Origin: Gammaproteobacteria bacterium
GTDB taxonomy: Bacteria > Pseudomonadota > Gammaproteobacteria > HyVt-429
Reading direction: 5' to 3'
Assembly (NCBI GenBank): GCA_013152415.1
Contig: JAADGI010000034.1
Location: 13,364-77,363, forward strand
DNA: 64,000 bases
Shown here: in pieces, positions 28,567 through 50,207 of the stretch
Layout of the letters: every line of letters begins with the position of its first letter
Numbering within the stretch: the first letter of the stretch is position 1
Program-made: the position numbers and the translations under genes
Notes under the pieces: model-generated
What the model was told of the DNA's origin: nothing
Seen by the model: the letters and a program-made list of their open reading frames with translations, nothing else
Databases searched by the model: none

Positions 28567-30306
<1,740 letters not shown>

Positions 30307-30372: not shown

Positions 30373-30386
30373 TTGACCTATGTTAA
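30373..30386 (-). promoter_or_regulatory. FNR/DNR-type box of the nirS promoter
   Basis: TTGAC-CTAT-GTTAA. A TAGAAT -10 (reverse complement of 30344..30349) lies 33 bp from the box centre. 76 bp upstream of the nirS ATG. Confidence 0.55.
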
Positions 30387-32922: not shown

Positions 32923-34314
32923 TCATGTATCACGTCTGCCAGACTTCATGGCACTCAATACGATGATGAGAAACAAAAGACCGCCTAAGATAGCGATCAG
33001 GCCACCCAAGCCCATCAGCCCCATGGCTGTGATCTTTTCCAGGCCATCGAGACCTTGCTCAACACCGGCGACCTTGCGTTGAACACCGTAGCCCCCCGAC
33101 CAGACCAAACCTACCACGTGTAGAAGCTGTCCCCCCCCATACACATAGGGTTGGATCCGGGACCACTTGAGATGGGGGGCAGAATACCCAAGCCGGGGTA
33201 ACAGATCATAGGTCAAGCCCATCAGCGCCAGCGTGACACCGACGATAGAACCATGATAGTGCGCCGGAATAGTGACATTGCTACCCTCAATCAGAAACCC
33301 GATGACACCACCAAACCCAAATAAAAGCATCGAGGTCATCAGGGCCGAGCGGTGACACGCATATTCCTTTGCTGCTGGGGGACTCCTGAACCAGGCATAA
33401 AGCAGCGCCAAACCCAGGGGCAGAGTGGCCAGGCTGCCGCCGTACGCCATCAACCAGGTGAACAGCTTGATATGCTCTGCTGACGCCACCGGAAAGGCAT
33501 AGTAAATCAGCGGTGCCATGAACACGGTCACCAATCCCAGGAAGAACAGCAACACCACCACACGTGGACTCAGGGGCAAACGTATACCGGACACCGAGGC
33601 AAGCCACAGCCAGGCGATGAGCGTGAGCAAGGTATAGGTGAACTGGAGCATGTGCCCACCCCCCCAGAACAACAGCTCAAAATAAGCCTTGCCGGTAATA
33701 CCGCCGGGGAGTGCCACATAGGACCAAATAAAGGCCATTAAGACCATGACGGCCGATACGCTGACTGTATTCAGACCAAAGCGTAACGCACTTTTTGCCG
33801 TCATCCGCTGACCAACCGCAGGAATCGCTATCATGCTGCGACCAACCAGTAAGGCAAAACCAGCAGCAAACCCCAACAAACCAGCCAAAAACAGGGGATG
33901 ATCCAATACCGGAATATAATTACTCATCAATGGATGATCGGCACCGATAAAGGGTGATAGGGCCATTACCGCTGTACCCGCCGCTGCCAGAATAAAGGCC
34001 CCCCACCCCAGACGCATAAACCGTGCCGTGGAATTCAGGCTCCACAACAACCCGGCAAAGGCCAGAAACCAGACCAGCACCGATAAATCGACGTGGATCA
34101 CCAATGCAGTATGAAAAAAATCAACCCAGGGGAAAATATTTTGCAAATAAGGGGTGCGCGACAACACCAACATGACTGAAAAAAGACCGGACCCCAATAA
34201 GGCCATCAGACCCAGCCACAACCATGCCACCGCCAGTGTACGGCGGCTACCCGATGGAATGGGGGATATAAACTCGTGATCGTTTTCTTCTGCTGCTGTG
34301 GTGGTAATAGTCAT
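32923..34314 (-). CDS. Divergent haem-copper-oxidase (subunit I)-like membrane protein with a His/Glu-His non-haem metal site
   Basis: About 12 TM helices. Landmarks FHTALVIH74V, FWGGGH221MLQF, SAE280H281IKLF and PAH352YH354GS. No Tyr near H221. Confidence 0.7.
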   Translation of the reverse strand: MTITTTAAEENDHEFISPIPSGSRRTLAVAWLWLGLMALLGSGLFSVMLVLSRTPYLQNIFPWVDFFHTALVIHVDLSVLVWFLAFAGLLWSLNSTARFMRLGWGAFILAAAGTAVMALSPFIGADHPLMSNYIPVLDHPLFLAGLLGFAAGFALLVGRSMIAIPAVGQRMTAKSALRFGLNTVSVSAVMVLMAFIWSYVALPGGITGKAYFELLFWGGGHMLQFTYTLLTLIAWLWLASVSGIRLPLSPRVVVLLFFLGLVTVFMAPLIYYAFPVASAEHIKLFTWLMAYGGSLATLPLGLALLYAWFRSPPAAKEYACHRSALMTSMLLFGFGGVIGFLIEGSNVTIPAHYHGSIVGVTLALMGLTYDLLPRLGYSAPHLKWSRIQPYVYGGGQLLHVVGLVWSGGYGVQRKVAGVEQGLDGLEKITAMGLMGLGGLIAILGGLLFLIIVLSAMKSGRRDT

Positions 34315-34334
34315 CTCAATAATTTTTGCGTGGC

Positions 34335-34838
34335 TTATTTCAAAATAAAATTGCTAATTCCCTCGTCAAAATCTATGACAAGCACCTGACCGGGTACCAA
34401 CTCCACGTACTGTTCAAGAACGGAAGTATAGCCTTCCTCGGGGGAACGATCACCGAGCTGCACCTTCAGAAAGTGGCGTCCAGCCTTAACAGTGAACCGC
34501 CTGTAGGCACTGGAGGCACTGTCACGACTCATCCCTGATGGTTGCAAGGTCTCCCGGTACATCAGCTTGCCGTCCAGGCTCAGCTCCACACTCACCGCGT
34601 GACGCTCCCGGGGGCAAACAACCCGCTCCCGCATATTGGGTGCCAACTTTGCCAACTCCTCATCACTGCGCTCGTAGCAATCACCGACAGACTGCCCGGC
34701 GTGACTGAAGCTCAATTTGACGACCGCCTGGTCGGGTGCCAGGCGAACGTAGGCCGGGGAGGCAGAAAAATATCCTATCGTGACAGCAAAGAGCGTGTAC
34801 GCTATGAGTTGTCCGGCAAACTGACCTAGCTTAATCAT
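34335..34838 (-). CDS. N-terminally anchored 167-aa protein (possible subunit II analogue without a CuA motif)
   Basis: One TM helix (LIAYTLFAVTIGYF) plus a soluble domain. 8-nt overlap with the upstream gene and 20-nt gap to the downstream gene. Confidence 0.55.
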   Translation of the reverse strand: MIKLGQFAGQLIAYTLFAVTIGYFSASPAYVRLAPDQAVVKLSFSHAGQSVGDCYERSDEELAKLAPNMRERVVCPRERHAVSVELSLDGKLMYRETLQPSGMSRDSASSAYRRFTVKAGRHFLKVQLGDRSPEEGYTSVLEQYVELVPGQVLVIDFDEGISNFILK

Positions 34839-36363
34839 GGCCGACAGCCTTCAAACTAACACGAAAATCTTCTATCTTTTTCGTCAATTCCTTCTTCTGC
34901 AGCAGCCCTGTCCAGAGTATCCTGATCTGCTCACGTGCCACACGGGCACGAAGTACAGGTTCCCGCTGACCGTCTATCCGTTGATCTGTCCAGGTATTGC
35001 CGCGGCGGAAATAGCAATCTCCACCCGCACATCCGGTAATAAACACGCCACTCGCACTGCCCTCTTGCAATACATAATCAAGAAAGGAAGGAGGTAGCAT
35101 ACCAATACAGGGCAATGACAATGCCGCCACACCGCTATTCTGCACGGCCTTGACATCGGTCGCATGATCACAACCGTAAACCAGTATCCGCACATCGTCG
35201 GTCAACTGCTCCAACGCCACTTTAGTCTTTAAGCGAAGCTCCTTTATCTTTAACTGCGGCATATCGATTCCGCTGACCAGATCTTCAATGCTGCGAAAGG
35301 GCGTGGAGGCTGGGCAGGAGCCTGCACAGATGCCACAACTGGCACATAGGGACTGGTTGACAACCGCCTCTTCAAAACCCGGCCGTTTGCTGTGGGCTTG
35401 CATCGTAATGGCCTCGAACGGGCAATCGGCAAAACAGCGCCGGCAGCCGTTGCAGTTGTCGGGATCAACGACAGCAACCGGGGCCTTTTTGGCAGGGGGC
35501 AGCCAGGGTAATATTGTCAAAACCAGCGTGAGTCCACCGAGGAGCAGCCACAAGCCACCCGCAGACCAGACTTCGAGTAGGGGATAGGTCAATAAATAAA
35601 ACCAGTCCAGATTGATCACGCTGACCGCAATGTCCAGGTTCGCTGCTCCCCCCTGGCTCAGGGCCGGTCGAACCAAGGAAACGGCCAGTAGCGCACACAA
35701 GGTACCGATGGCCAGGGTACGCGATGGGTTGGTACGCGCCAGGGTGATTCTTTGGATATGAATCCACATAGCCAGCAGGAGCATTAGAGGGATTGCGATA
35801 TGCAAAAATATCAGTAGCGAGAAAAAGCGATCACTCAGATAGGCCTGGCTGAGAAAATTGCGCGCCATCGGTTTGGTAAAAATGGGCAACCAGTCCACCC
35901 ACTCCGCTGTTGTCACCGCAATATACTGCGCCAGCTTGTCCCACACCAACCAATACCCTCCGATACCGGAAGCAAATGCCAACCACAACAACGGTACACC
36001 CGTCACCCAGGAAAACCAGCGCGCGCCCCGGTAGCGATTAAAGGCAAACTCCCGAATAAGGTGGAGTGTCATGGTGACCACAAAGGCATCAGAGGCATAA
36101 CGGTGCAAGCTACGCATCACCCCACCGAGGTACCACTGCTCGTGGGTCAGGTACTCAACTGACTCATAGGCCGCCGTTGCACTGGTTTCAAAGAAGATGT
36201 ACAGATACAGGCCGCTGACAACAATAAGCCAGAAGAAATAGAACGACAACGCACCCAGCTGATGAAGGGGATTGCAGGTTTGCCCAAATACACGATTGAA
36301 TCCAGCATCCGCCAGATCGAAGAGTCGGCGTATGCCATGTTGAAAAAATGTTAGCAAGAACAA
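34831..36363 (-). CDS. Fusion protein: dihaem cytochrome b, 2x[4Fe-4S] ferredoxin and MvhD/FlpD-like domain
   Basis: Two His pairs spaced 14 residues apart (SLHRY..TLHLI and FLHIA..WIHIQ). CNGCRRCFADCP and CASCGICAGSCP. C-terminal VYGCDHA..LPCIGM..GCAGGDCYFRRGN. Confidence 0.8.
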   Translation of the reverse strand: MFLLTFFQHGIRRLFDLADAGFNRVFGQTCNPLHQLGALSFYFFWLIVVSGLYLYIFFETSATAAYESVEYLTHEQWYLGGVMRSLHRYASDAFVVTMTLHLIREFAFNRYRGARWFSWVTGVPLLWLAFASGIGGYWLVWDKLAQYIAVTTAEWVDWLPIFTKPMARNFLSQAYLSDRFFSLLIFLHIAIPLMLLLAMWIHIQRITLARTNPSRTLAIGTLCALLAVSLVRPALSQGGAANLDIAVSVINLDWFYLLTYPLLEVWSAGGLWLLLGGLTLVLTILPWLPPAKKAPVAVVDPDNCNGCRRCFADCPFEAITMQAHSKRPGFEEAVVNQSLCASCGICAGSCPASTPFRSIEDLVSGIDMPQLKIKELRLKTKVALEQLTDDVRILVYGCDHATDVKAVQNSGVAALSLPCIGMLPPSFLDYVLQEGSASGVFITGCAGGDCYFRRGNTWTDQRIDGQREPVLRARVAREQIRILWTGLLQKKELTKKIEDFRVSLKAVGHD

Positions 36364-36418: not shown

Positions 36419-36432
36419 TTGATCAACATCAA
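36419..36432 (-). promoter_or_regulatory. Consensus FNR box of the cytochrome b-FeS-MvhD operon promoter
   Basis: TTGAT-CAAC-ATCAA inside the perfect palindrome CATTTGAT-CAAC-ATCAAATG (36416..36435). A TAAATA -10 lies 33 bp from the centre. 62 bp upstream of the start codon. Confidence 0.75.
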
Positions 36433-36510: not shown

Positions 36511-37374
36511 CTAAGTCCCGTTGCGACGTTGCCCCCGCCATTCCCGGACAAGCCAGAAAAGCATGGAAATCAAAATAATCGCACCGATAAACACACCAAC
36601 AAATAGTGAGTAGTCAAAGTAATATCGGTCACTGCCAGGGTCGTAGACCGTACAGAACAAACGAATCCGGTTAGCCAGGGTAGTCAGCAATGAATCTGAT
36701 TTTGGTGTCCCAAGAACCAGCTCCTTTAACGGCTCTACTAATCGTGGCGTATCAGAGCGGGTTCCATTGATACCGTAGATTTGCCTGTACACCTTGCCGG
36801 CACCATCAACAAGCGTCGCTTGCAACAGGTGATCAAACCCATTGGGTGAACTGAAATACAGAAACCCGACCTCATTGACCAAGCGCCCGATTGTCTTTTG
36901 ATCCCCACTTAAAAACTTCCAACCTGGTTGGTTAATACCCTGTTGCCTTGCAAACTCGCGCATGGCATCCGAGGTATCGTTAGGGGTGTCAAAACCGATC
37001 GTTAGAACGTTAAAGCTGTCTTTACCCAGCACATCCCGTGCCTTATTTACAGCTTGGGCTAAGTGTCGCGTAGCTGTTGGGCAAACATGATAACAACTGG
37101 TGTAAATGAAGCTAATTAAAAGTGGCTTGCCAAGATAATCTGACAGCTTTACCGACTCGCCAGTCCGCCCGACCAAGACATACTCACCGATAGTATTACC
37201 AATTACGGCCTGACTGACTTTAAGCGCCGAGGCATTATCGAAGGTCTTTGGTTTAGATATCACCGGGCCTTCAGACGCACAAGCCCACTGCCCTATAGAC
37301 AACAACAATGGCAGCGCAACAAACCTAGTGGCTAGCCACCTCAACCGCGACCGTAAAGTCAAACACCGCCCCAA
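36511..37374 (-). CDS. senC: SCO1/SenC copper chaperone with C-terminal TM anchor
   Basis: Thioredoxin-fold motif FIYTSCYHVCP (CxxxC) and the downstream His of the SCO family. Confidence 0.85.
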   Translation of the reverse strand: MGRCLTLRSRLRWLATRFVALPLLLSIGQWACASEGPVISKPKTFDNASALKVSQAVIGNTIGEYVLVGRTGESVKLSDYLGKPLLISFIYTSCYHVCPTATRHLAQAVNKARDVLGKDSFNVLTIGFDTPNDTSDAMREFARQQGINQPGWKFLSGDQKTIGRLVNEVGFLYFSSPNGFDHLLQATLVDGAGKVYRQIYGINGTRSDTPRLVEPLKELVLGTPKSDSLLTTLANRIRLFCTVYDPGSDRYYFDYSLFVGVFIGAIILISMLFWLVREWRGQRRNGT

Positions 37375-38228
37375 CCGGCAAGTTGGACATCAATAATAGC
37401 ACCCACAAGCACCAGTGAAAGTTGAATAATTGAAGCGAAAAAATTGACCCTGGCCTTTTCCTTTGTGGGCTGCAGAACCAGCTCGATATTCCTAAGTATA
37501 AAGTAACCACCCCCGACCACGGCACAGCTCAGATAAACCCACCCCAGCCCATAAAAGAAAGGAGTGATAGAAGCGGCCACCAGGATAATCGTATTGACAA
37601 GAATAAGTCGTGCGGCAGCGGCATCTCCGACAACCACGGGCAACATCGGCACTTTAGCGGCGGCATAGTCACGATGCAGGACAATGGCCAAACTCCAGAA
37701 ATGTGGGGGTGTCCATAAAAACAGTACCGTGGCCAACAGAATCGCCGCTGGACTCAGGCCTGGATCGGCGGCCGCAGCACCACCCAGAACGGCAAAGCTG
37801 CCAGCCAAACCACCAATAACAATATTGAATACACTGCACCGCTTGAGCCAAACCGTATAGACGATTGCATAAGTGAAGGCACCCATGAATATATGGAACG
37901 CCGCCACCAGATTAAACAACCAACCCGCAGCGACCACTGATACCAACAGCATGGCGGACACTCCCCATAACCAGAGTCGATTATCGGTAAAGGCACCGGT
38001 GACAAATGGCCGCTTACAGGTCCGGCTCATACGTGCATCCAGATCCCGTTCCACGAACTGATTGAAAGCACCCGCACTGGCGGAAGACATGAGCACCAAT
38101 AGGCCCAGTGCAACAATCTGCCAAGCTGGTAGGTCGGCGCCGGGCGTTACGACATAACCTGCAATTGCCGTAATCGCAATCAGGGCACCAATCCGCAGCT
38201 TGAAGACATTGACGAGTTGAGAAAACAT
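37359..38228 (-). CDS. ctaB: Protohaem IX farnesyltransferase (haem O synthase)
   Basis: UbiA-family polytopic protein, 289 aa, with NQFVERDLDARM and PPHFW motifs. Confidence 0.9.
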   Translation of the reverse strand: MFSQLVNVFKLRIGALIAITAIAGYVVTPGADLPAWQIVALGLLVLMSSASAGAFNQFVERDLDARMSRTCKRPFVTGAFTDNRLWLWGVSAMLLVSVVAAGWLFNLVAAFHIFMGAFTYAIVYTVWLKRCSVFNIVIGGLAGSFAVLGGAAAADPGLSPAAILLATVLFLWTPPHFWSLAIVLHRDYAAAKVPMLPVVVGDAAAARLILVNTIILVAASITPFFYGLGWVYLSCAVVGGGYFILRNIELVLQPTKEKARVNFFASIIQLSLVLVGAIIDVQLAGWGGV

Positions 38229-38290
38229 AACGTCCTATATCCTCTGTGTTAAAACACCTACTACACTACCCCGGTTCTTTCGGGAAAGGT

Positions 38291-38326
38291 GGGCGGAACA
38301 GCGAATCTTCAGACACTGTTCCGCCC
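38291..38326 (-). terminator. 11-bp perfect stem-loop between oxidase subunit I and ctaB (intra-operon attenuator or RNA-processing site candidate)
   Basis: GGGCGGAACAG-N14-CTGTTCCGCCC. No strong T-run. Confidence 0.4.
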
Positions 38327-38336
38327 AAGTATCACG

Positions 38337-40028
38337 TCAGCTGATACCCCAGGTTTCGGCAAGGAACTTCCAGTTGACGAAGTAGTAGAGGACAAAGGAA
38401 ACAAGAAATACAAGCGCCAACACAAAGGTGCCCGGGGCCACAATCTTGCCCATACCCACCCCTTCGTAGCTGGTAATCGGCTCAGCCACCAAGGGTGTTT
38501 CACCCTTCTCGGTCAGGCTCAAGCGCTTACCAAACAGTAGGGAGGCGACGATGATGCCGCAAAAGGCCGCACCACCGATAACGGCCAACACCACCGAGAT
38601 CCCCATAAGGCCCAGCAGGGTATAAGCGGTCTCTGGAAAGTTATGGGTAAACGCTGCACTCACAAAGGACAGGTCCCAGTGACGCCGTGGTACACCCAAG
38701 GTACCCGCCCCCATCATGAACACGGCCACACCTGACATCCCAAGAGCGAAGATGTACGGCTGCCATTTGGCCAGCCCCTTCATCACCAAATCCCGCCGAA
38801 ACAACACCGGCACTAACCAATACGTCAGGGCCATAAAGGCCAGGGTCGTACCGAGAACTACGGTGGCATGAAAATGGCCTGGTACGTAGATGGTGTTATG
38901 AATGATCAGGTTGATTTGCTCGGTACCCATGACCACCCCGGAGATACCCCCCAGAAAGCCAAAGAGGACAAGGGACATAAACACGCCCGAAAATGCCGGG
39001 TTGCCCCATGGAGCCTTGCGCAACCATTCGAACAGGCCCTTATTGAAACCACGCTTACGCTGGGATGCCTCAATGGCGCCCGGCACGGTCAAGCCATGAA
39101 TCATACTGGCCAACACCGCCAGATACATGGCGTAACTGGTGTTAAAAATCTTCCAGGTGGAACTGACACCTGGGTCCACCAAAATATGGTGGGCACTGGC
39201 CAGTTGTAAAAATATAATGTACAGCAAGAAGGCGGCCCGACTGACCTTCTCCGACAGTGGCTTAGCACCAAAAGCCACTGCCGCCACTGCATACCAAACG
39301 GCTACCATGGCAGCCATATTGATCTGCTGTGAAGAATGGCCGAAGGCCCACCAGATTACCCGATACATAAGCGGGTCAATCTCACTGATAAATCCTATCG
39401 AGAACAGAAAAGTTGGGATCAGGATAATCGCGCCGGATGCGATGGTAAATATGGCTATGATAGCCGCTGTCAAGGCACCAAAAGTCACCAGCGGTAGAGA
39501 ACCTTCATAGGTTTTCTCTGCTTTGGCGATGACCAAGGTCCCAAGAAATACGAAACACCCGAGCAACGCCCCAACGGCAAACACGATCAGACCCAGATAG
39601 AACATCGGGTCCGCCGACATGGGCACGTAAGAAGTAAACATGACACTGGAATTGCCCTGGAATACGGCAATATTATTGACGATTGCACCGATCAACATCA
39701 GGGCAAAAGCCAGCCATGCGATGCGCGGTGTCGCCAAGCGACAACCCAGCAGAGTAGATGAGCAGAAATACAACACTGCCATCTCAAAAAAGATGAGCCA
39801 ATAAATCAGGACATCAATACCGTGGGCAGTCAGTACCATATAAAAGTCACTGGCACCGAGCAAATGCACGGCTGGCCAACGCGTCAACCCAACGAGTAAG
39901 CCGAGAACACCACCGACCAACAGGAAGACAACCGCGACAACGGCGTTAATCTTCATTAACTTCTCCGCCGGTTTGTGGAACAACAGTCCGGTATCAGGAC
40001 AAGTACGGAATTCACTAGCAGTGGCCAT
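38337..40028 (-). CDS. B-family-like haem-copper oxidase subunit I lacking the cross-linked Tyr (candidate NO reductase of the sNOR/eNOR type)
   Basis: LTAHGIDV (helix II His), WWAFGHSSQQINM where ba3-type enzymes have GHPxVY, SAHHILVDPG (CuB HH) and VPGHFHATV (haem His pair). Confidence 0.85.
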   Translation of the reverse strand: MATASEFRTCPDTGLLFHKPAEKLMKINAVVAVVFLLVGGVLGLLVGLTRWPAVHLLGASDFYMVLTAHGIDVLIYWLIFFEMAVLYFCSSTLLGCRLATPRIAWLAFALMLIGAIVNNIAVFQGNSSVMFTSYVPMSADPMFYLGLIVFAVGALLGCFVFLGTLVIAKAEKTYEGSLPLVTFGALTAAIIAIFTIASGAIILIPTFLFSIGFISEIDPLMYRVIWWAFGHSSQQINMAAMVAVWYAVAAVAFGAKPLSEKVSRAAFLLYIIFLQLASAHHILVDPGVSSTWKIFNTSYAMYLAVLASMIHGLTVPGAIEASQRKRGFNKGLFEWLRKAPWGNPAFSGVFMSLVLFGFLGGISGVVMGTEQINLIIHNTIYVPGHFHATVVLGTTLAFMALTYWLVPVLFRRDLVMKGLAKWQPYIFALGMSGVAVFMMGAGTLGVPRRHWDLSFVSAAFTHNFPETAYTLLGLMGISVVLAVIGGAAFCGIIVASLLFGKRLSLTEKGETPLVAEPITSYEGVGMGKIVAPGTFVLALVFLVSFVLYYFVNWKFLAETWGIS

Positions 40029-40064
40029 TTCGCCTCCCTATTCTAATAATTTATTCGTTTGACG

Positions 40065-40607
40065 TTATTCTGTAACGTAGATTCTACCGACCATTCTATG
40101 ATGGCCAATACCACAATATTCATTACAGACCACCGAGTATTCGCCCGCCTTGTTGGGGGTAATAGTCACTACCATCTCGTAGCCCGGGAGTACCTGTAAA
40201 TTGATATTAGCGGGTTGCAGTGAAAAGCCATGCTGCCAATCCAAGGAAGACAGGTGAAGACGATAACTCTTACCATTTTCAAGTTCCAGGACAGGCCACC
40301 AATCCCACAACCGCGCAAGCATATAGATGTCACTACCTGCGGGGGGCCGCACTACCGGAAAATCACGAGCGCCGTCGGTGCGAACGGTATACTGGTCTAC
40401 CATAGCCTGGACCTTCTTCTGGTATGCCTCGGCTGTAGTCTTGTACGCCTCACTCGACAAATTCTGTTTCCCGTAAACATGCCAGTAGGGCATCATGACA
40501 AACATCAAGACGGCCCAAAGTAAGGCGAGGAGAATCCACAGCAACTCGACCTTCTCGATAGGTTCTTTCCACCACAACCGATCTGACGGTGGCATTAATG
40601 CGCTCAT
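40065..40607 (-). CDS. Haem-copper oxidase subunit II with a complete CuA site
   Basis: N-terminal TM helix and cupredoxin domain with WQHGFS ... CNEYCGIGHHRM (H, C, C, H, M ligands), closely ba3-like. Confidence 0.85.
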   Translation of the reverse strand: MSALMPPSDRLWWKEPIEKVELLWILLALLWAVLMFVMMPYWHVYGKQNLSSEAYKTTAEAYQKKVQAMVDQYTVRTDGARDFPVVRPPAGSDIYMLARLWDWWPVLELENGKSYRLHLSSLDWQHGFSLQPANINLQVLPGYEMVVTITPNKAGEYSVVCNEYCGIGHHRMVGRIYVTE

Positions 40608-40644
40608 AGCATTTCCTCCTAATCCACTTTATTAGCTATTACAA

Positions 40645-40785
40645 TTATTTGGCAATGGGAATGTGGATGATCTCCATGATTCCCCAAATGAGATAAAACA
40701 CCGTCGGAACAACCACACCTATAAATAACAACAAAAAGGGGTTGTCGAGCACACGTTGCATAGCAGGAACTCTCTCTTCAGCCAT
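40645..40785 (-). CDS. Small single-TM protein (46 aa), possible oxidase subunit IIa analogue
   Basis: GGAGAA RBS 7 nt before the ATG at 40785. MAEERVPAMQRVLDNPFLLLFIGVVVPTVFYLIWGIM. Sits directly upstream of subunit II. Confidence 0.45.
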   Translation of the reverse strand: MAEERVPAMQRVLDNPFLLLFIGVVVPTVFYLIWGIMEIIHIPIAK

Positions 40786-40969
40786 TATATTTCTCCGTTG
40801 ACACTTGCTGTTGATTATTCGGGTGCTGCCATTTCCACAAAACCCACCAGACCACCACTGCACCACTATTGTTAGTCAGCGACACACCCAGCACTGGGCA
40901 AAAAGGCCAACTTGCAGCAGGTCGCACAAACCTTGGCGCACAATAGACCATTTTTAAAACAATATTTAA

Positions 40970-40983
40970 TTGATCTATGTTAA
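40970..40983 (-). promoter_or_regulatory. FNR/DNR-like box upstream of the oxidase operon
   Basis: TTGAT-CTAT-GTTAA has the same right half and spacer as the nirS box. A TATTGT -10 on the minus strand lies 34 bp from the centre. Confidence 0.45.
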
Positions 40984-41167: not shown

Positions 41168-42133
41168 ATGGGCAACAATAACAAACAATTAAGGTTTTTT
41201 AGGGTGCTGGTTTTTATCTCCCTGCTGTTGACCTTGGTAGCAGTGGTGTTAAGCGCACACATAAGACTGGGTGGTATCGGGCTGGGATGCGGGGACTGGC
41301 CTCACTGCTTTGGGCAGATACCCGTGGCAAGCGCTACTGACACCATACCGACCACCCTGGCTGGTGTTGCACACCGTGTGACGGCGAGTCTCTTGGGCCT
41401 GTTGGTGATGGTGATTAGCGTCCTTGCCATACGCTACCGCGGTCAGACCGGCACCGGGCTGAGCGTGCCATTGCTTGCCTTCATACTGATCGTATTCTTG
41501 TCGGTTCTCGGCTTCAATACCCCCGCATGGCAAGCCCCGGCGGTCACTTTGGGAAATTTAGTCGGTGGCATGGCTTTACTGGCCCTGCTGTGGTGGATGG
41601 GCCAACGTTCCCTGACCGGCGAGGCAGTGACGGCAAACACGGGGGGCACTTTCAGACCCTGGGTACTGGTGGGAGTGGCGGTAATAACACTGCAAATCGG
41701 CTTAGGGGCCTGGACCAGCGCCAATTTTGCCGGCCCTGCCTGCTCACTTCCGGCTTGTACGCAAGACTGGATGTCCCTCTCCCAACTATTACAGGGATTT
41801 GACCTGACCCGTCGGCTGGCAGTAGATGGCCAGGGGAGGATTATTGTCGACAGCACCCAGGCAACTCTGCACATGGCGCATCGAATAGGTGCCCCGCTAA
41901 CACTGCTATACATCGGTGGCTTGGCAGTAATAATTTTACGCAAACACAAACCATTGCGCTCCACCTGTGTTGCCATCCTGTTTTTATTATTGGCCCAATC
42001 CAGCTTTGGGGTAACCGCAATCATGACAGAACTGCCACTACTGTTGGTAACCGCGCACAACGCAGTCGCGGCCCTGTTGTTACTGGCAATAGTCAACCTG
42101 CTTCATCGGCTGACACCCAAATCGATTAACTGA
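41168..42133 (+). CDS. ctaA: Haem A synthase (CtaA/COX15 family)
   Basis: 8-TM protein with the GLGCGDWPHCFG motif and conserved His residues. Divergent from the oxidase operon. Confidence 0.85.
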   Translation: MGNNNKQLRFFRVLVFISLLLTLVAVVLSAHIRLGGIGLGCGDWPHCFGQIPVASATDTIPTTLAGVAHRVTASLLGLLVMVISVLAIRYRGQTGTGLSVPLLAFILIVFLSVLGFNTPAWQAPAVTLGNLVGGMALLALLWWMGQRSLTGEAVTANTGGTFRPWVLVGVAVITLQIGLGAWTSANFAGPACSLPACTQDWMSLSQLLQGFDLTRRLAVDGQGRIIVDSTQATLHMAHRIGAPLTLLYIGGLAVIILRKHKPLRSTCVAILFLLLAQSSFGVTAIMTELPLLLVTAHNAVAALLLLAIVNLLHRLTPKSIN

Positions 42134-42810: not shown

Positions 42811-42824
42811 TTGATCGACATCAA
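42811..42824. promoter_or_regulatory. Consensus FNR box between the HPP gene and PFOR
   Basis: TTGAT-CGAC-ATCAA, centred 96 bp upstream of the HPP start and 288 bp upstream of the PFOR start. No convincing -10 on either strand. Confidence 0.65.
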
Positions 42825-50063: not shown

Positions 50064-50207
50064 CAAACACTCCCATTCAATCTTCCACATTCGGTTACAC
50101 ATCATTTATTGATCTACATCAACCAGAATGGATATTAACCCCGATGACGAGAACCCTATGGCGTACACTTCAAACTGAGGTGCGATTACCATAACCCGTA
50201 GCAGATC

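Follow-up and report, generated by a model that had tools for sequence, protein, structure and literature searches.

The window, by which we mean the whole 64,000-nucleotide stretch of DNA that was analysed, carries on its minus strand genes for a small membrane protein, subunits II and I of a haem-copper enzyme that is probably of the eNOR family, a ctaB-type haem O synthase and an Sco1/SenC copper chaperone, with a divergent ctaA gene upstream (Table 1). The initial annotation of the locus had described the same order (small TM protein, subunit II, subunit I, ctaB, senC). The subunit II gene lies 36 bp upstream of the subunit I gene, and senC, which has a TTG start codon, overlaps ctaB by 16 nt; the SenC protein has the CxxxC motif CYHVC and is extended at its C-terminus, the extension ending in a TM helix. 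Of 62 related loci, 61 have a senC homologue after subunit I, and 32 have ctaA beside the structural genes. Both haem synthesis genes are second copies: the genome holds two ctaB genes, the other of which scores higher and lies beside the aa3 oxidase operon on contig 11, and two ctaA genes, with the canonical one (361 bits) on contig 33. In 58 of the 62 related loci the small ORF immediately precedes subunit II, and small ORFs are annotated at the same spot in Thermus, Thermomicrobium and Defluviimonas. Pfam and PDB sequence searches with the 46-aa product returned no match; it is possibly a third subunit, its likeness to subunit IIa of ba3 oxidase being one of gene position only.

Table 1. 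Positions of the genes and sequence elements of the cluster within the window.
Feature	Position	Strand	Remarks
Small ORF, 46 aa, single TM helix (MAEERVPAMQ...)	40645..40785	-	likeliest start is the ATG at 40785, after GGAG
Subunit II of probable eNOR: N-terminal TM helix and cupredoxin domain	40065..40607	-	complete CuA site
Subunit I of probable eNOR, haem-copper, 563 aa	38337..40028	-	COX1, 234.8 bits
GC-rich stem-loop	38291..38326	-	10 nt past the subunit I stop codon
ctaB/cyoE haem O synthase, dedicated second copy	37359..38228	-	TIGR01473 (cyoE_ctaB), 264 bits, cut-off 210
Sco1/SenC copper chaperone	36511..37374	-	PF02630 (SCO1-SenC), 56 bits
ctaA haem A synthase, divergent second copy	41168..42133	+	PF02628, 130 bits
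Degenerate FNR/DNR-type box TTGAT-CTAT-GTTAA	40970..40983	.	within the divergent ctaA/eNOR intergenic region
Perfect FNR/DNR box TTGATCAACATCAA	36419..36432	.	intergenic, senC to cytochrome b-FeS gene (147 bp)
Conserved three-gene accessory tail	32923..36363	-	from domains, synteny and paralogy
Dihaem cytochrome b / 2x[4Fe-4S] / MvhD-like fusion	34831-36363	-
167-aa protein	34335-34838	-
463-aa subunit I paralogue without the His-His pair	32923-34314	-

Two non-coding features had also been noted initially, a perfect 11-bp hairpin separating subunit I from ctaB and an upstream box resembling that of the nirS promoter, and we found both. The core of the hairpin (GGGCGGAACAG / CTGTTCCGCCC, at 38291-38301 and 38316-38326) lies within a predicted stem of 14 pairs (-31.3 kcal/mol, z = -5.0); none of 200 shuffled sequences folded as well, and just two inverted repeats of this kind occur within 15 kb. 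Six related loci have a strong stem-loop at the equivalent place, with a different sequence in each and with a T-run downstream in two of them. Positioned between the structural and the biogenesis genes, the hairpin is likely a partial terminator or an mRNA-stabilising element. The upstream box (TTGATCTATGTTAA) has two mismatches to TTGAT-N4-ATCAA and is identical at 13 of 14 positions to the box upstream of nirS (TTGACCTATGTTAA, 30373-30386). One of its half-sites (GTTAA) is weak, and it lies ~190 bp before the start codon of the small ORF. Nine of the ten related loci checked have a box at a like distance (-180 to -211); two of these boxes are identical to that in the window, and another is a perfect palindrome. 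Since the positions of box and hairpin are both conserved in related genomes, their presence reflects more than chance. A scan of the upstream region for sigma-70 consensus elements gave no promoter, a result to be expected where the promoter depends on an activator, and uninformative. A Crp-family regulator encoded nearby has an E--SR recognition motif and no N-terminal Cys cluster. We also noticed a split PFOR 2 kb off, behind another perfect FNR box.

Metal ligands and the tyrosine site

The full CuA site initially annotated in subunit II is borne out by alignment: the ligands (H and C-x-E-x-C-x3-H-x2-M) all align with those of the Thermus thermophilus ba3 CuA domain (HGF...CNEYCGIGHHRM in the window opposite HGF...CNQYCGLGHQNM in ba3). 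This domain is also the best PDB match of subunit II (E = 2e-17); matches to COX2 and CoxB are weak. The motifs reported for subunit I are likewise all present, namely LTAHG (H69), the HH pair in SAHHIL (H280/H281) and GHFH (H385/H387), together with GHSSQQ (H231), and with them all six His ligands are kept: H69 and H387 for the low-spin haem, H385 for the high-spin haem, and H231, H280 and H281 for metal-B. The ba3 oxidases are the best PDB matches of subunit I by sequence, and also the best structural matches (TM 0.72-0.74) of its AlphaFold model (pLDDT 77.7, pTM 0.81).

The protein had been noted to read GHSSQQ in place of GHPxVY, and hence to lack the cross-link Tyr. Three alignments (HMMER against two solved B-family oxidases, and MAFFT L-INS-i) agree in placing Gln235 opposite ba3 Tyr237 (GHSSQQ versus GHPIVY); by HMMER, the residue facing Gln235 is Y237 in ba3 and a Tyr in chain 7deg_A. 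Gln235 is invariant among 124 family members, as are Q234 and N237. We looked for a substitute Tyr at H+4 and at the cbb3-type site, six residues before the His-His pair, and found none, the latter position being L274; hence, the migrated Tyr that had been raised as a point against the initial reading is seen at neither site. Helix VII does carry an invariant Tyr270, but ten residues (roughly 15 A) further down than H280. [quoted passage not shown] The K-channel analogue residues, whose loss had likewise been raised initially, are partly retained and partly changed in a way that is constant in the family: S308, T314 and Y246 are kept as the counterparts of ba3 S309, T315 and Y248, whereas T312 is replaced by the invariant His311 and Y244 by Val.

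Family assignment and alternative readings

The eNOR family was reportedly first predicted by Hemp and Gennis in 2008. At the site of the cross-link Tyr, Gln defines eNOR and Asn defines sNOR (PMC8756737, section 2.7.1 and Table A4); Murali et al. described conserved K-channel-like residues in eNOR (PMC11214002), and a conserved loop Tyr has been described (bioRxiv 10.1101/592808). In a maximum-likelihood tree computed without the sequences of Rhodothermus marinus eNOR, Nitrosomonas europaea sNOR and Bacillus azotoformans bNOR, 18 sequences with the pattern H-x-x-Q-Q-x-N formed one clade (SH-aLRT 100), apart from the Tyr-bearing B-family. This Q-Q clade includes the window protein, a protein from the haloarchaeon Natrarchaeobius, a T. 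thermophilus megaplasmid copy, and proteins from Thermomicrobium, a Magnetospirillaceae MAG and a Rhodocyclaceae MAG. The Thermus megaplasmid copy has Lys instead of the second low-spin haem His, as in the His/Lys variant that Murali et al. reported for some eNORs (PMC11214002). We rejected assignment to cNOR or qNOR: the H+4 residue is Gln and not Glu, the partner subunit is a CuA cupredoxin, and in the tree the window protein groups with B-family enzymes, at a great distance from the CcoN of the same genome. Plasmid haem-copper enzymes from Deinococcus psychrotolerans and Methylobacterium radiotolerans, considered as sNOR references, were set aside, as they keep GH-x-x-V-Y and group with B-family oxidases. 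Both are labelled "cbb3-type", and the M. radiotolerans enzyme is accompanied by SCO and assembly genes.

We conclude that the enzyme is very probably a nitric oxide reductase of the eNOR family, encoded in one operon with the genes for making its cofactors. As initially proposed, a B-family-derived, CuA-containing enzyme that lacks the cross-link Tyr is, judged by its sequence, best read as an NO reductase and not as a terminal oxidase. It is an ordinary, typical member of an already described family, about which it adds nothing new.

A further proposal, that two non-canonical NORs lie side by side, did not survive, since the neighbouring genes are a conserved tail of the eNOR cluster and the 463-aa protein lacks a His-His pair. 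Of the 62 loci whose downstream sequence is long enough, 61 have the cytochrome b-FeS and 167-aa genes after eNOR, and at least 42 have the 463-aa gene. Its product is a paralogue of subunit I (hhalign probability 99.8%) that keeps the haem ligands and one metal-site His. The eNOR loci of Thermus and Thermomicrobium have no such tail, so the core enzyme needs no more than subunits I and II. We put forward, as a doubtful suggestion only, that eNOR of the proteobacterial subclade is the terminal part of an eight-gene unit, in which the cytochrome b-FeS/MvhD protein, the 167-aa protein and the paralogue would form a second membrane module that feeds electrons to the enzyme or assembles or repairs it. 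As an electron feed to NO reduction, the module could draw on quinol or on a cytoplasmic low-potential donor; if real, it would give an NO reductase a partner, in respiration or in maturation, of a kind not described before. That the three genes are so tightly linked to this eNOR subclade is a useful side result.

The initial annotation had called the enzyme sNOR/eNOR-like. The sNOR cluster, the norSY-senC type of ammonia oxidisers, resembles the operon in the window in that it includes a CuA subunit and senC and that its enzyme has no cross-link Tyr. However, senC is a poor pointer to sNOR, since sco1 is usual in eNOR operons, both across the related loci and in Ferrigenium (bioRxiv 10.64898/2026.01.22.701106). 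Moreover, the diagnostic residue of sNOR is Asn (PMC8756737, Table A4), whereas the window has Gln235, and sNOR has no equivalent of S309, with a Glu at another location instead (PMC11214002, section 8), whereas S308 is kept and invariant here. The protein also falls inside the well-supported Q-Q clade, albeit in a tree with no authentic sNOR sequence. We therefore regard an sNOR as extremely improbable. Slightly more, but still very little, can be said for a terminal O2 reductase, that is, an unusual B-family oxidase in which another residue stands in for the Tyr. By sequence and by fold, ba3 oxidases match best, relatives are publicly annotated as cytochrome c oxidase subunit I, K-channel-like residues and an invariant helix VII Tyr are kept, and O2 is needed for haem A synthesis. 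Nevertheless, Tyr270 lies ten residues below H280, neither H+4 nor the cbb3-type site offers a Tyr, and Murali et al., who saw a migrated Tyr in none of these families, found that the R. marinus enzyme reduces NO but not O2 (PMC11214002). The genome already encodes aa3 and cbb3 oxidases, and the gene lies within a nirS island, after an FNR/DNR-type box. We consider O2 reduction very unlikely.

An alternative that accepts the family assignment holds that the main role of the protein is not respiratory NO reduction, but NO detoxification under micro-oxic conditions, or that it acts only when joined by the cytochrome b-FeS/MvhD protein and the 463-aa paralogue in a larger complex. R. marinus eNOR turns over slowly, at 0.68 NO per s (PMC11214002), so the main substrate may be a different one. 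The linkage of the cytochrome b-FeS and 167-aa genes to eNOR would fit a larger complex, NnrS and further NO-stress genes are close by, and within the GTDB order only two of four genomes have eNOR, the one from the same genus lacking it. Against this, the Thermus and Thermomicrobium loci do without the tail, R. marinus eNOR was active when purified as two subunits (PMC11214002), and the presence of nirS without any other NOR favours a place in the main pathway. We judge such a role unlikely, and retain the reading as a respiratory eNOR.

Proposed role and relation to known systems

The genome, which is 93% complete, encodes NirS, an aa3 oxidase and a cbb3 oxidase; searches of it for cNOR, qNOR and nosZ found none, although any of these could possibly lie on the missing DNA. 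PF00115 matches are limited to the aa3 and cbb3 oxidases, eNOR subunit I and the 463-aa paralogue, and so, at this level of completeness, eNOR is probably the only NOR-type haem-copper enzyme of the host. The cluster is situated within a nirS / nirFDLGHJN / NnrS / NosR-like island. Given that nirS is present while cNOR, qNOR and nosZ are absent, eNOR is the likely sink for NO made by NirS, with N2O as the end product.

The analysis shows which genes are present, the ligands, the exchange of Tyr for Gln, membership of the clade, synteny and the genome inventory. What the enzyme does, which metals and haem it holds, how protons reach it and how it is regulated we infer, the mechanism by homology with ba3 oxidase and with the characterised R. 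marinus eNOR. A periplasmic one-electron donor would reduce CuA of subunit II, from where electrons would pass through the low-spin haem (H69/H387) to a binuclear site consisting of the high-spin haem on H385 and a non-haem metal on H231, H280 and H281. Gln235 would stand in for the redox-active Tyr; with no Tyr, four-electron O2 reduction would be impossible, whereas the reaction 2 NO + 2 e- + 2 H+ -> N2O + H2O would be possible. A modified K-channel (S308, H311, T314, Y246 and perhaps Y270) would probably lead protons in from the cytoplasm, and the reaction would then be electrogenic. A haem A variant may come from the dedicated ctaB and ctaA paralogues that flank the structural genes, and Sco1/SenC may load copper into CuA. 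A haem O/A-type cofactor, as proposed initially from ctaB and ctaA, is consistent with the haem As found in both sites of R. marinus eNOR (PMC11214002). Expression would probably be driven by a DNR/NNR-type Crp-family regulator acting at the FNR-like box, jointly with nirS, and the hairpin after subunit I would reduce read-through into the biogenesis genes.

Annotations routinely label eNOR genes, including those of relatives, as subunit I of a cytochrome c oxidase or of a "cbb3-type" enzyme, and our literature search on eNOR in Acidiferrobacterales found no paper discussing it there. With eNOR misannotated as an oxidase, such genomes look like nirS carriers that are unable to remove NO. Read correctly, this sulfur-oxidiser-like gammaproteobacterium would be a nitrite-to-N2O denitrifier without nosZ, and a potential net source of N2O.

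The window enzyme is B-family-derived and has in common with the eNOR of R. marinus DSM 4252 (Rmar_0161) a two-subunit CuA haem-copper architecture, Gln for Tyr, three metal-B His, K-channel-like residues, haem A synthesis genes and a nirS host without cNOR or qNOR. Many eNOR operons include ctaA (PMC11214002). Compared with R. marinus eNOR by description, the window protein belongs to a proteobacterial subclade (66-92% mutual identity) that has an extended cluster, with ctaB, sco1, cytochrome b-FeS, the 167-aa gene and the subunit I paralogue. Castellaniella defragrans DSM 12141, Magnetospirillum magneticum AMB-1 and a Noviherbaspirillum sp. are among the laboratory strains with this cluster. 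The closest parallel in gene content is Ferrigenium straubiae of culture KS, whose eNOR operon holds the genes for subunits II and I, for a haem o synthase, for Sco1 and for a protein of unknown function, along with cytochrome b/[Fe-S] genes, and is expressed in nitrate-reducing and denitrifying conditions (bioRxiv 10.64898/2026.01.22.701106). The operon in the window has the same make-up and order, and both genomes have aa3 and cbb3 oxidases; F. straubiae, however, is a member of the Gallionellaceae, in a different class from the Acidiferrobacterales-like gammaproteobacterium of the window, and its operon has no ctaA, whereas ctaA is divergent and adjacent here. That preprint deems the cytochrome b genes unusual (bioRxiv 10.64898/2026.01.22.701106), in contrast to their near-constant association with eNOR in our set of loci.

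T. thermophilus ba3 oxidase (PDB 1EHK, 3S8F) shares with the window enzyme the fold, the six His ligands, the CuA domain, a small third TM subunit at the same gene position, and equivalents of S309, Y248 and T315. It differs in being an O2 reducer, in overall identity (only about 25-33%) and at four positions, where the window has Gln235 for Tyr237, Val for Y244, His311 for T312 and Asn237 for W239. The sNOR of ammonia-oxidising bacteria (norSY-senC-orf1) is, like the window enzyme, a CuA-type, Tyr-less, B-family-related haem-copper enzyme with senC in its cluster, but has Asn at the Tyr site, lacks an S309 equivalent and forms a separate lineage according to Murali et al.

Operon and active site of subunit I

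Five closely packed genes occupy positions 40785 to 36511 of the minus strand, with ctaA divergent (Table). The assignments to COX1, cyoE_ctaB, SCO1-SenC and COX15-CtaA are unambiguous. Subunit II matches the CuA domain of T. thermophilus ba3 oxidase (E = 2e-17), with all CuA ligands present. The 287-aa SenC protein has a ~95-aa extension beyond its thioredoxin-like domain that ends in a predicted TM helix (SLFVGVFIGAIILISMLFWLV); this extension and an N-terminal signal-like segment are unusual among Sco proteins.

Features of the window. Loci: number of the 62 related loci with ≥5.9 kb downstream of subunit I that carry the gene.
Feature	Coordinates	Strand	Evidence or remark	Loci
46-aa single-TM ORF	40645-40785	-	ATG preceded by GGAG	58
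Subunit II, 180 aa	40065-40607	-	CuA domain	
Haem-copper subunit I, 563 aa	38337-40028	-	COX1 234.8 bits	
Haem O synthase (ctaB)	37359-38228	-	cyoE_ctaB 264 bits, cut-off 210	39
Sco1/SenC	36511-37374	-	SCO1-SenC 56 bits; TTG start, 16-nt overlap with ctaB	61
SenC extension	36511-36800	-	C-terminal third	
ctaA	41168-42133	+	COX15-CtaA 130 bits	32
Cytochrome b-FeS-MvhD fusion	34831-36363			61
167-aa gene	34335-34838			61
463-aa paralogue	32923-34314		loci incomplete; lower bound	at least 42
nirS	28567-30303			
Box TTGATCTATGTTAA	40970-40983		2 mismatches to FNR/DNR consensus	
Perfect box	36419		in 147-bp gap ahead of cytochrome b-FeS gene	
Perfect palindrome	42811-42824		TTGAT-N4-ATCAA; between HPP-family gene and split PFOR	
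Perfect palindrome	50109-50122		TTGAT-N4-ATCAA; at 50.1 kb	

A sequence search with subunit I found only B-family oxidases as close relatives among PDB chains, the best matches being A. aeolicus-type 7DEG (1e-51) and T. thermophilus ba3 (~1e-48); ba3 oxidases are also the top structural matches (TM 0.72-0.74) of an AlphaFold model (pTM 0.81). In two PDB-chain alignments, the GHSSQQ motif lies opposite GHPVVY or GHPIVY, and aligning 36 diverse haem-copper oxidases (HCOs) with MAFFT L-INS-i gave the same placement; hence, H231 corresponds to ba3 H233 and Gln235 to ba3 Tyr237. The full set of six His ligands to the metal and haems is kept (H69, H231, H280, H281, H385 and H387). Loss of K-channel residues, a check raised by the initial annotation, is only partial: ba3 S309, T315 and Y248 are retained as S308, T314 and Y246, and T312 and Y244 are changed to His311 and Val242. 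Q234, Q235, N237, Y246, Y270, S308, H311 and Tyr134 (helix 3-4 loop) are invariant in 124 family members, five divergent ones included.

A Tyr from another helix might have replaced the missing one, which would favour an oxidase. Alignment revealed none at the cbb3-type position, six residues ahead of the His-His pair, where subunit I has L274. The sole family-specific Tyr of helix VII, Y270, lies ten residues below H280, a depth that would suit a channel residue better than a cross-link partner.

Assignment to the eNOR family

By published definition, eNOR has Gln at the Tyr site, where sNOR has Asn, cNOR and qNOR have Glu, and oxidases have Tyr (PMC8756737, section 2.7.1, Table A4). We searched 1.8 billion cluster representatives for homologues of subunit I. 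The window protein, P0121 (one such representative) and a Natrarchaeobius protein share the signature H-x-x-Q-Q-x-N; archaeal sequences in which the Tyr is kept have H-x-x-Q-Y-x-N; an odd H-x-x-H-Y group and the usual GHP-x-V-Y B-family oxidases were also retrieved. In a maximum-likelihood tree of 45 sequences, from which the characterised R. marinus eNOR protein was left out, the Q-Q sequences form a single clade (n = 18, SH-aLRT 100), with Q-Y sequences adjoining and the B-family outside. From Gln235 at the Tyr site, the complete CuA site and the Q-Q clade, we conclude that the enzyme is predicted to be an NO reductase of CuA type rather than an oxidase, and that its precise family is eNOR. 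The initial annotation had already favoured an NO reductase, and the gene order, CuA site, subunit I motifs (LTAHG, the HH pair, GHFH and GHSSQQ), hairpin and upstream box that it described were all found; its sNOR label should be dropped, since the Tyr site has Gln, not Asn, and the S309 equivalent is retained.

The archaeal-rich HCO group that adjoins eNOR in the tree (P0128, P0129, P0133 and P0147; Hodarchaeales and Thermoproteota) is like eNOR in Q at H+3, N at H+6 and a His311 equivalent, and has Tyr at H+4 (GH-x-x-Q-Y-x-N). "K family" oxidases are said to cluster with eNOR (bioRxiv 10.1101/592808), and the Q-Y neighbours are probably these; they look like the oxidase state ancestral to eNOR, with a Tyr-to-Gln change between the two. 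A further HCO-like clade (P0176, P0191, P0235 and P0268; SH-aLRT 100), with signature F-H-x-x-H-Y, has Tyr at two His positions (the first of the His-His pair and the proximal one of the high-spin haem), and fits none of the families that could be named.

Subunit I has more than 8000 matches among database proteins; most of the best 120 (72-92% identity) bear the name cytochrome c oxidase subunit I or "cbb3-type". Among named genomes, Acidiferrobacterales MAGs (91, 86 and 83%) come nearest, together with Sulfuricaulis (~75%), and plasmid-borne relatives occur in Defluviimonas (64%), T. thermophilus megaplasmids (48-49%) and Thermomicrobium roseum (46%). The gene also occurs in cultured organisms, among them Castellaniella defragrans DSM 12141, Noviherbaspirillum sp. 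ST 5-3, Piscinibacter caeni and Comamonas faecalis. Distribution within the small GTDB order is patchy, with eNOR in 2 of 4 genomes and absent from the one of the same genus. A Bacteroidota-labelled MAG (MAG255, L010) and a Sulfuricaulis MAG (L013) have near-identical eNORs, with tree branches of 0.03-0.04 and shared synteny, which reflects either a mis-binned contig or very recent transfer. On T. thermophilus SNM6-6 plasmid pTthSNM6-6b (6307-9140), an eNOR annotated as a cbb3-type oxidase is flanked by a multicopper oxidase/radical SAM/cytochrome P460 group on one side and an Rrf2-family (NsrR-like) regulator on the other.

Accessory tail and candidate regulatory sites

The initial annotation placed a second NOR in the neighbouring operon. 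The genes of that operon recur in related loci (Table), and a publicly annotated Defluviimonas plasmid has the identical gene order; thus, they form the regular tail of the eNOR cluster. Alignment of the 463-aa protein with subunit I spans the entire 12-helix core (hhalign probability 99.8%), and the protein keeps the equivalents of H69, H231, Q234, H385 and H387. Because it lacks a His-His pair, it was rejected as an additional NOR of any type so far described, and the "two NORs" reading is abandoned. Thermus and Thermomicrobium loci have subunits II and I only, to which Thermomicrobium adds a ctaA-ctaB fusion; the tail is thus confined to a subclade. The cytochrome b-2x[4Fe-4S]-MvhD fusion and 167-aa gene (34335-36363; loci L005-L084) accompany this subclade of eNOR in all but one of 62 loci. 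In Castellaniella and in some loci from betaproteobacteria, the tail genes stand in a permuted order.

The upstream box differs at one position from that 76 bp upstream of nirS, bearing out the likeness first noticed. In 9 of 10 related loci checked, an FNR-type box precedes the small ORF by 180-211 bp; its sequence is identical to the window's in two of them, and in L025 it is a perfect TTGATCTAGATCAA. This phylogenetic footprint suggests that the candidate FNR/DNR box is probably functional although degenerate in the window. There are three perfect boxes in the window, and 63 with ≤2 mismatches (33 ± 6 in shuffles). The position of the predicted box at 36419 means that the tail may have a separate start site; the two remaining perfect palindromes suggest a broad FNR/DNR regulon across the island. 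The strong hairpin 3' of subunit I (-31.3 kcal/mol, z = -5.0) has counterparts of unrelated sequence at the equivalent place in relatives, those of L005 and L006 preceding a T-run; we read it as a putative partial terminator or stabiliser that would set the ratio of structural to biogenesis transcripts.

Genome context and described eNORs

The window is a denitrification island with nirS, nirF, nirD/L/G/H, nirJ, nirN, a NosR-like gene, NnrS and a regulator of the Crp family. This regulator carries the E--SR motif for DNA recognition and lacks the N-terminal Cys cluster, indicating DNR/NNR rather than FNR type. The assembly (2.74 Mb, 93% complete) has four PF00115 matches (aa3 CoxA, cbb3 CcoN, eNOR subunit I and the 463-aa paralogue), none of them a cNOR or qNOR. 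nosZ was not found in it, the sole NosZ-model match being the CuA domain of eNOR subunit II; with nirS and eNOR, the organism's denitrification would stop at N2O.

Haem O synthase and haem A synthase are each encoded twice in the genome. In both cases the copy linked to eNOR is the more divergent, which would fit a dedicated variant of haem A, for example the haem As present in R. marinus eNOR (PMC11214002). In the Thermus megaplasmid copy on pTthSNM6-6b, Lys replaces the second low-spin haem His, the same His/Lys variant that Murali et al. reported for some eNORs (PMC11214002), and the conserved Tyr noted in the helix 3-4 loop of eNORs (bioRxiv 10.1101/592808) is Y134 in the window protein. 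Cytochrome b genes linked to eNOR, like the one in the conserved accessory tail, were called unusual in the Ferrigenium preprint (bioRxiv 10.64898/2026.01.22.701106), from which the eNOR operon is already known. The family was described in 2008 and validated biochemically in 2024 (PMC11214002), and the window gene adds a member to it.
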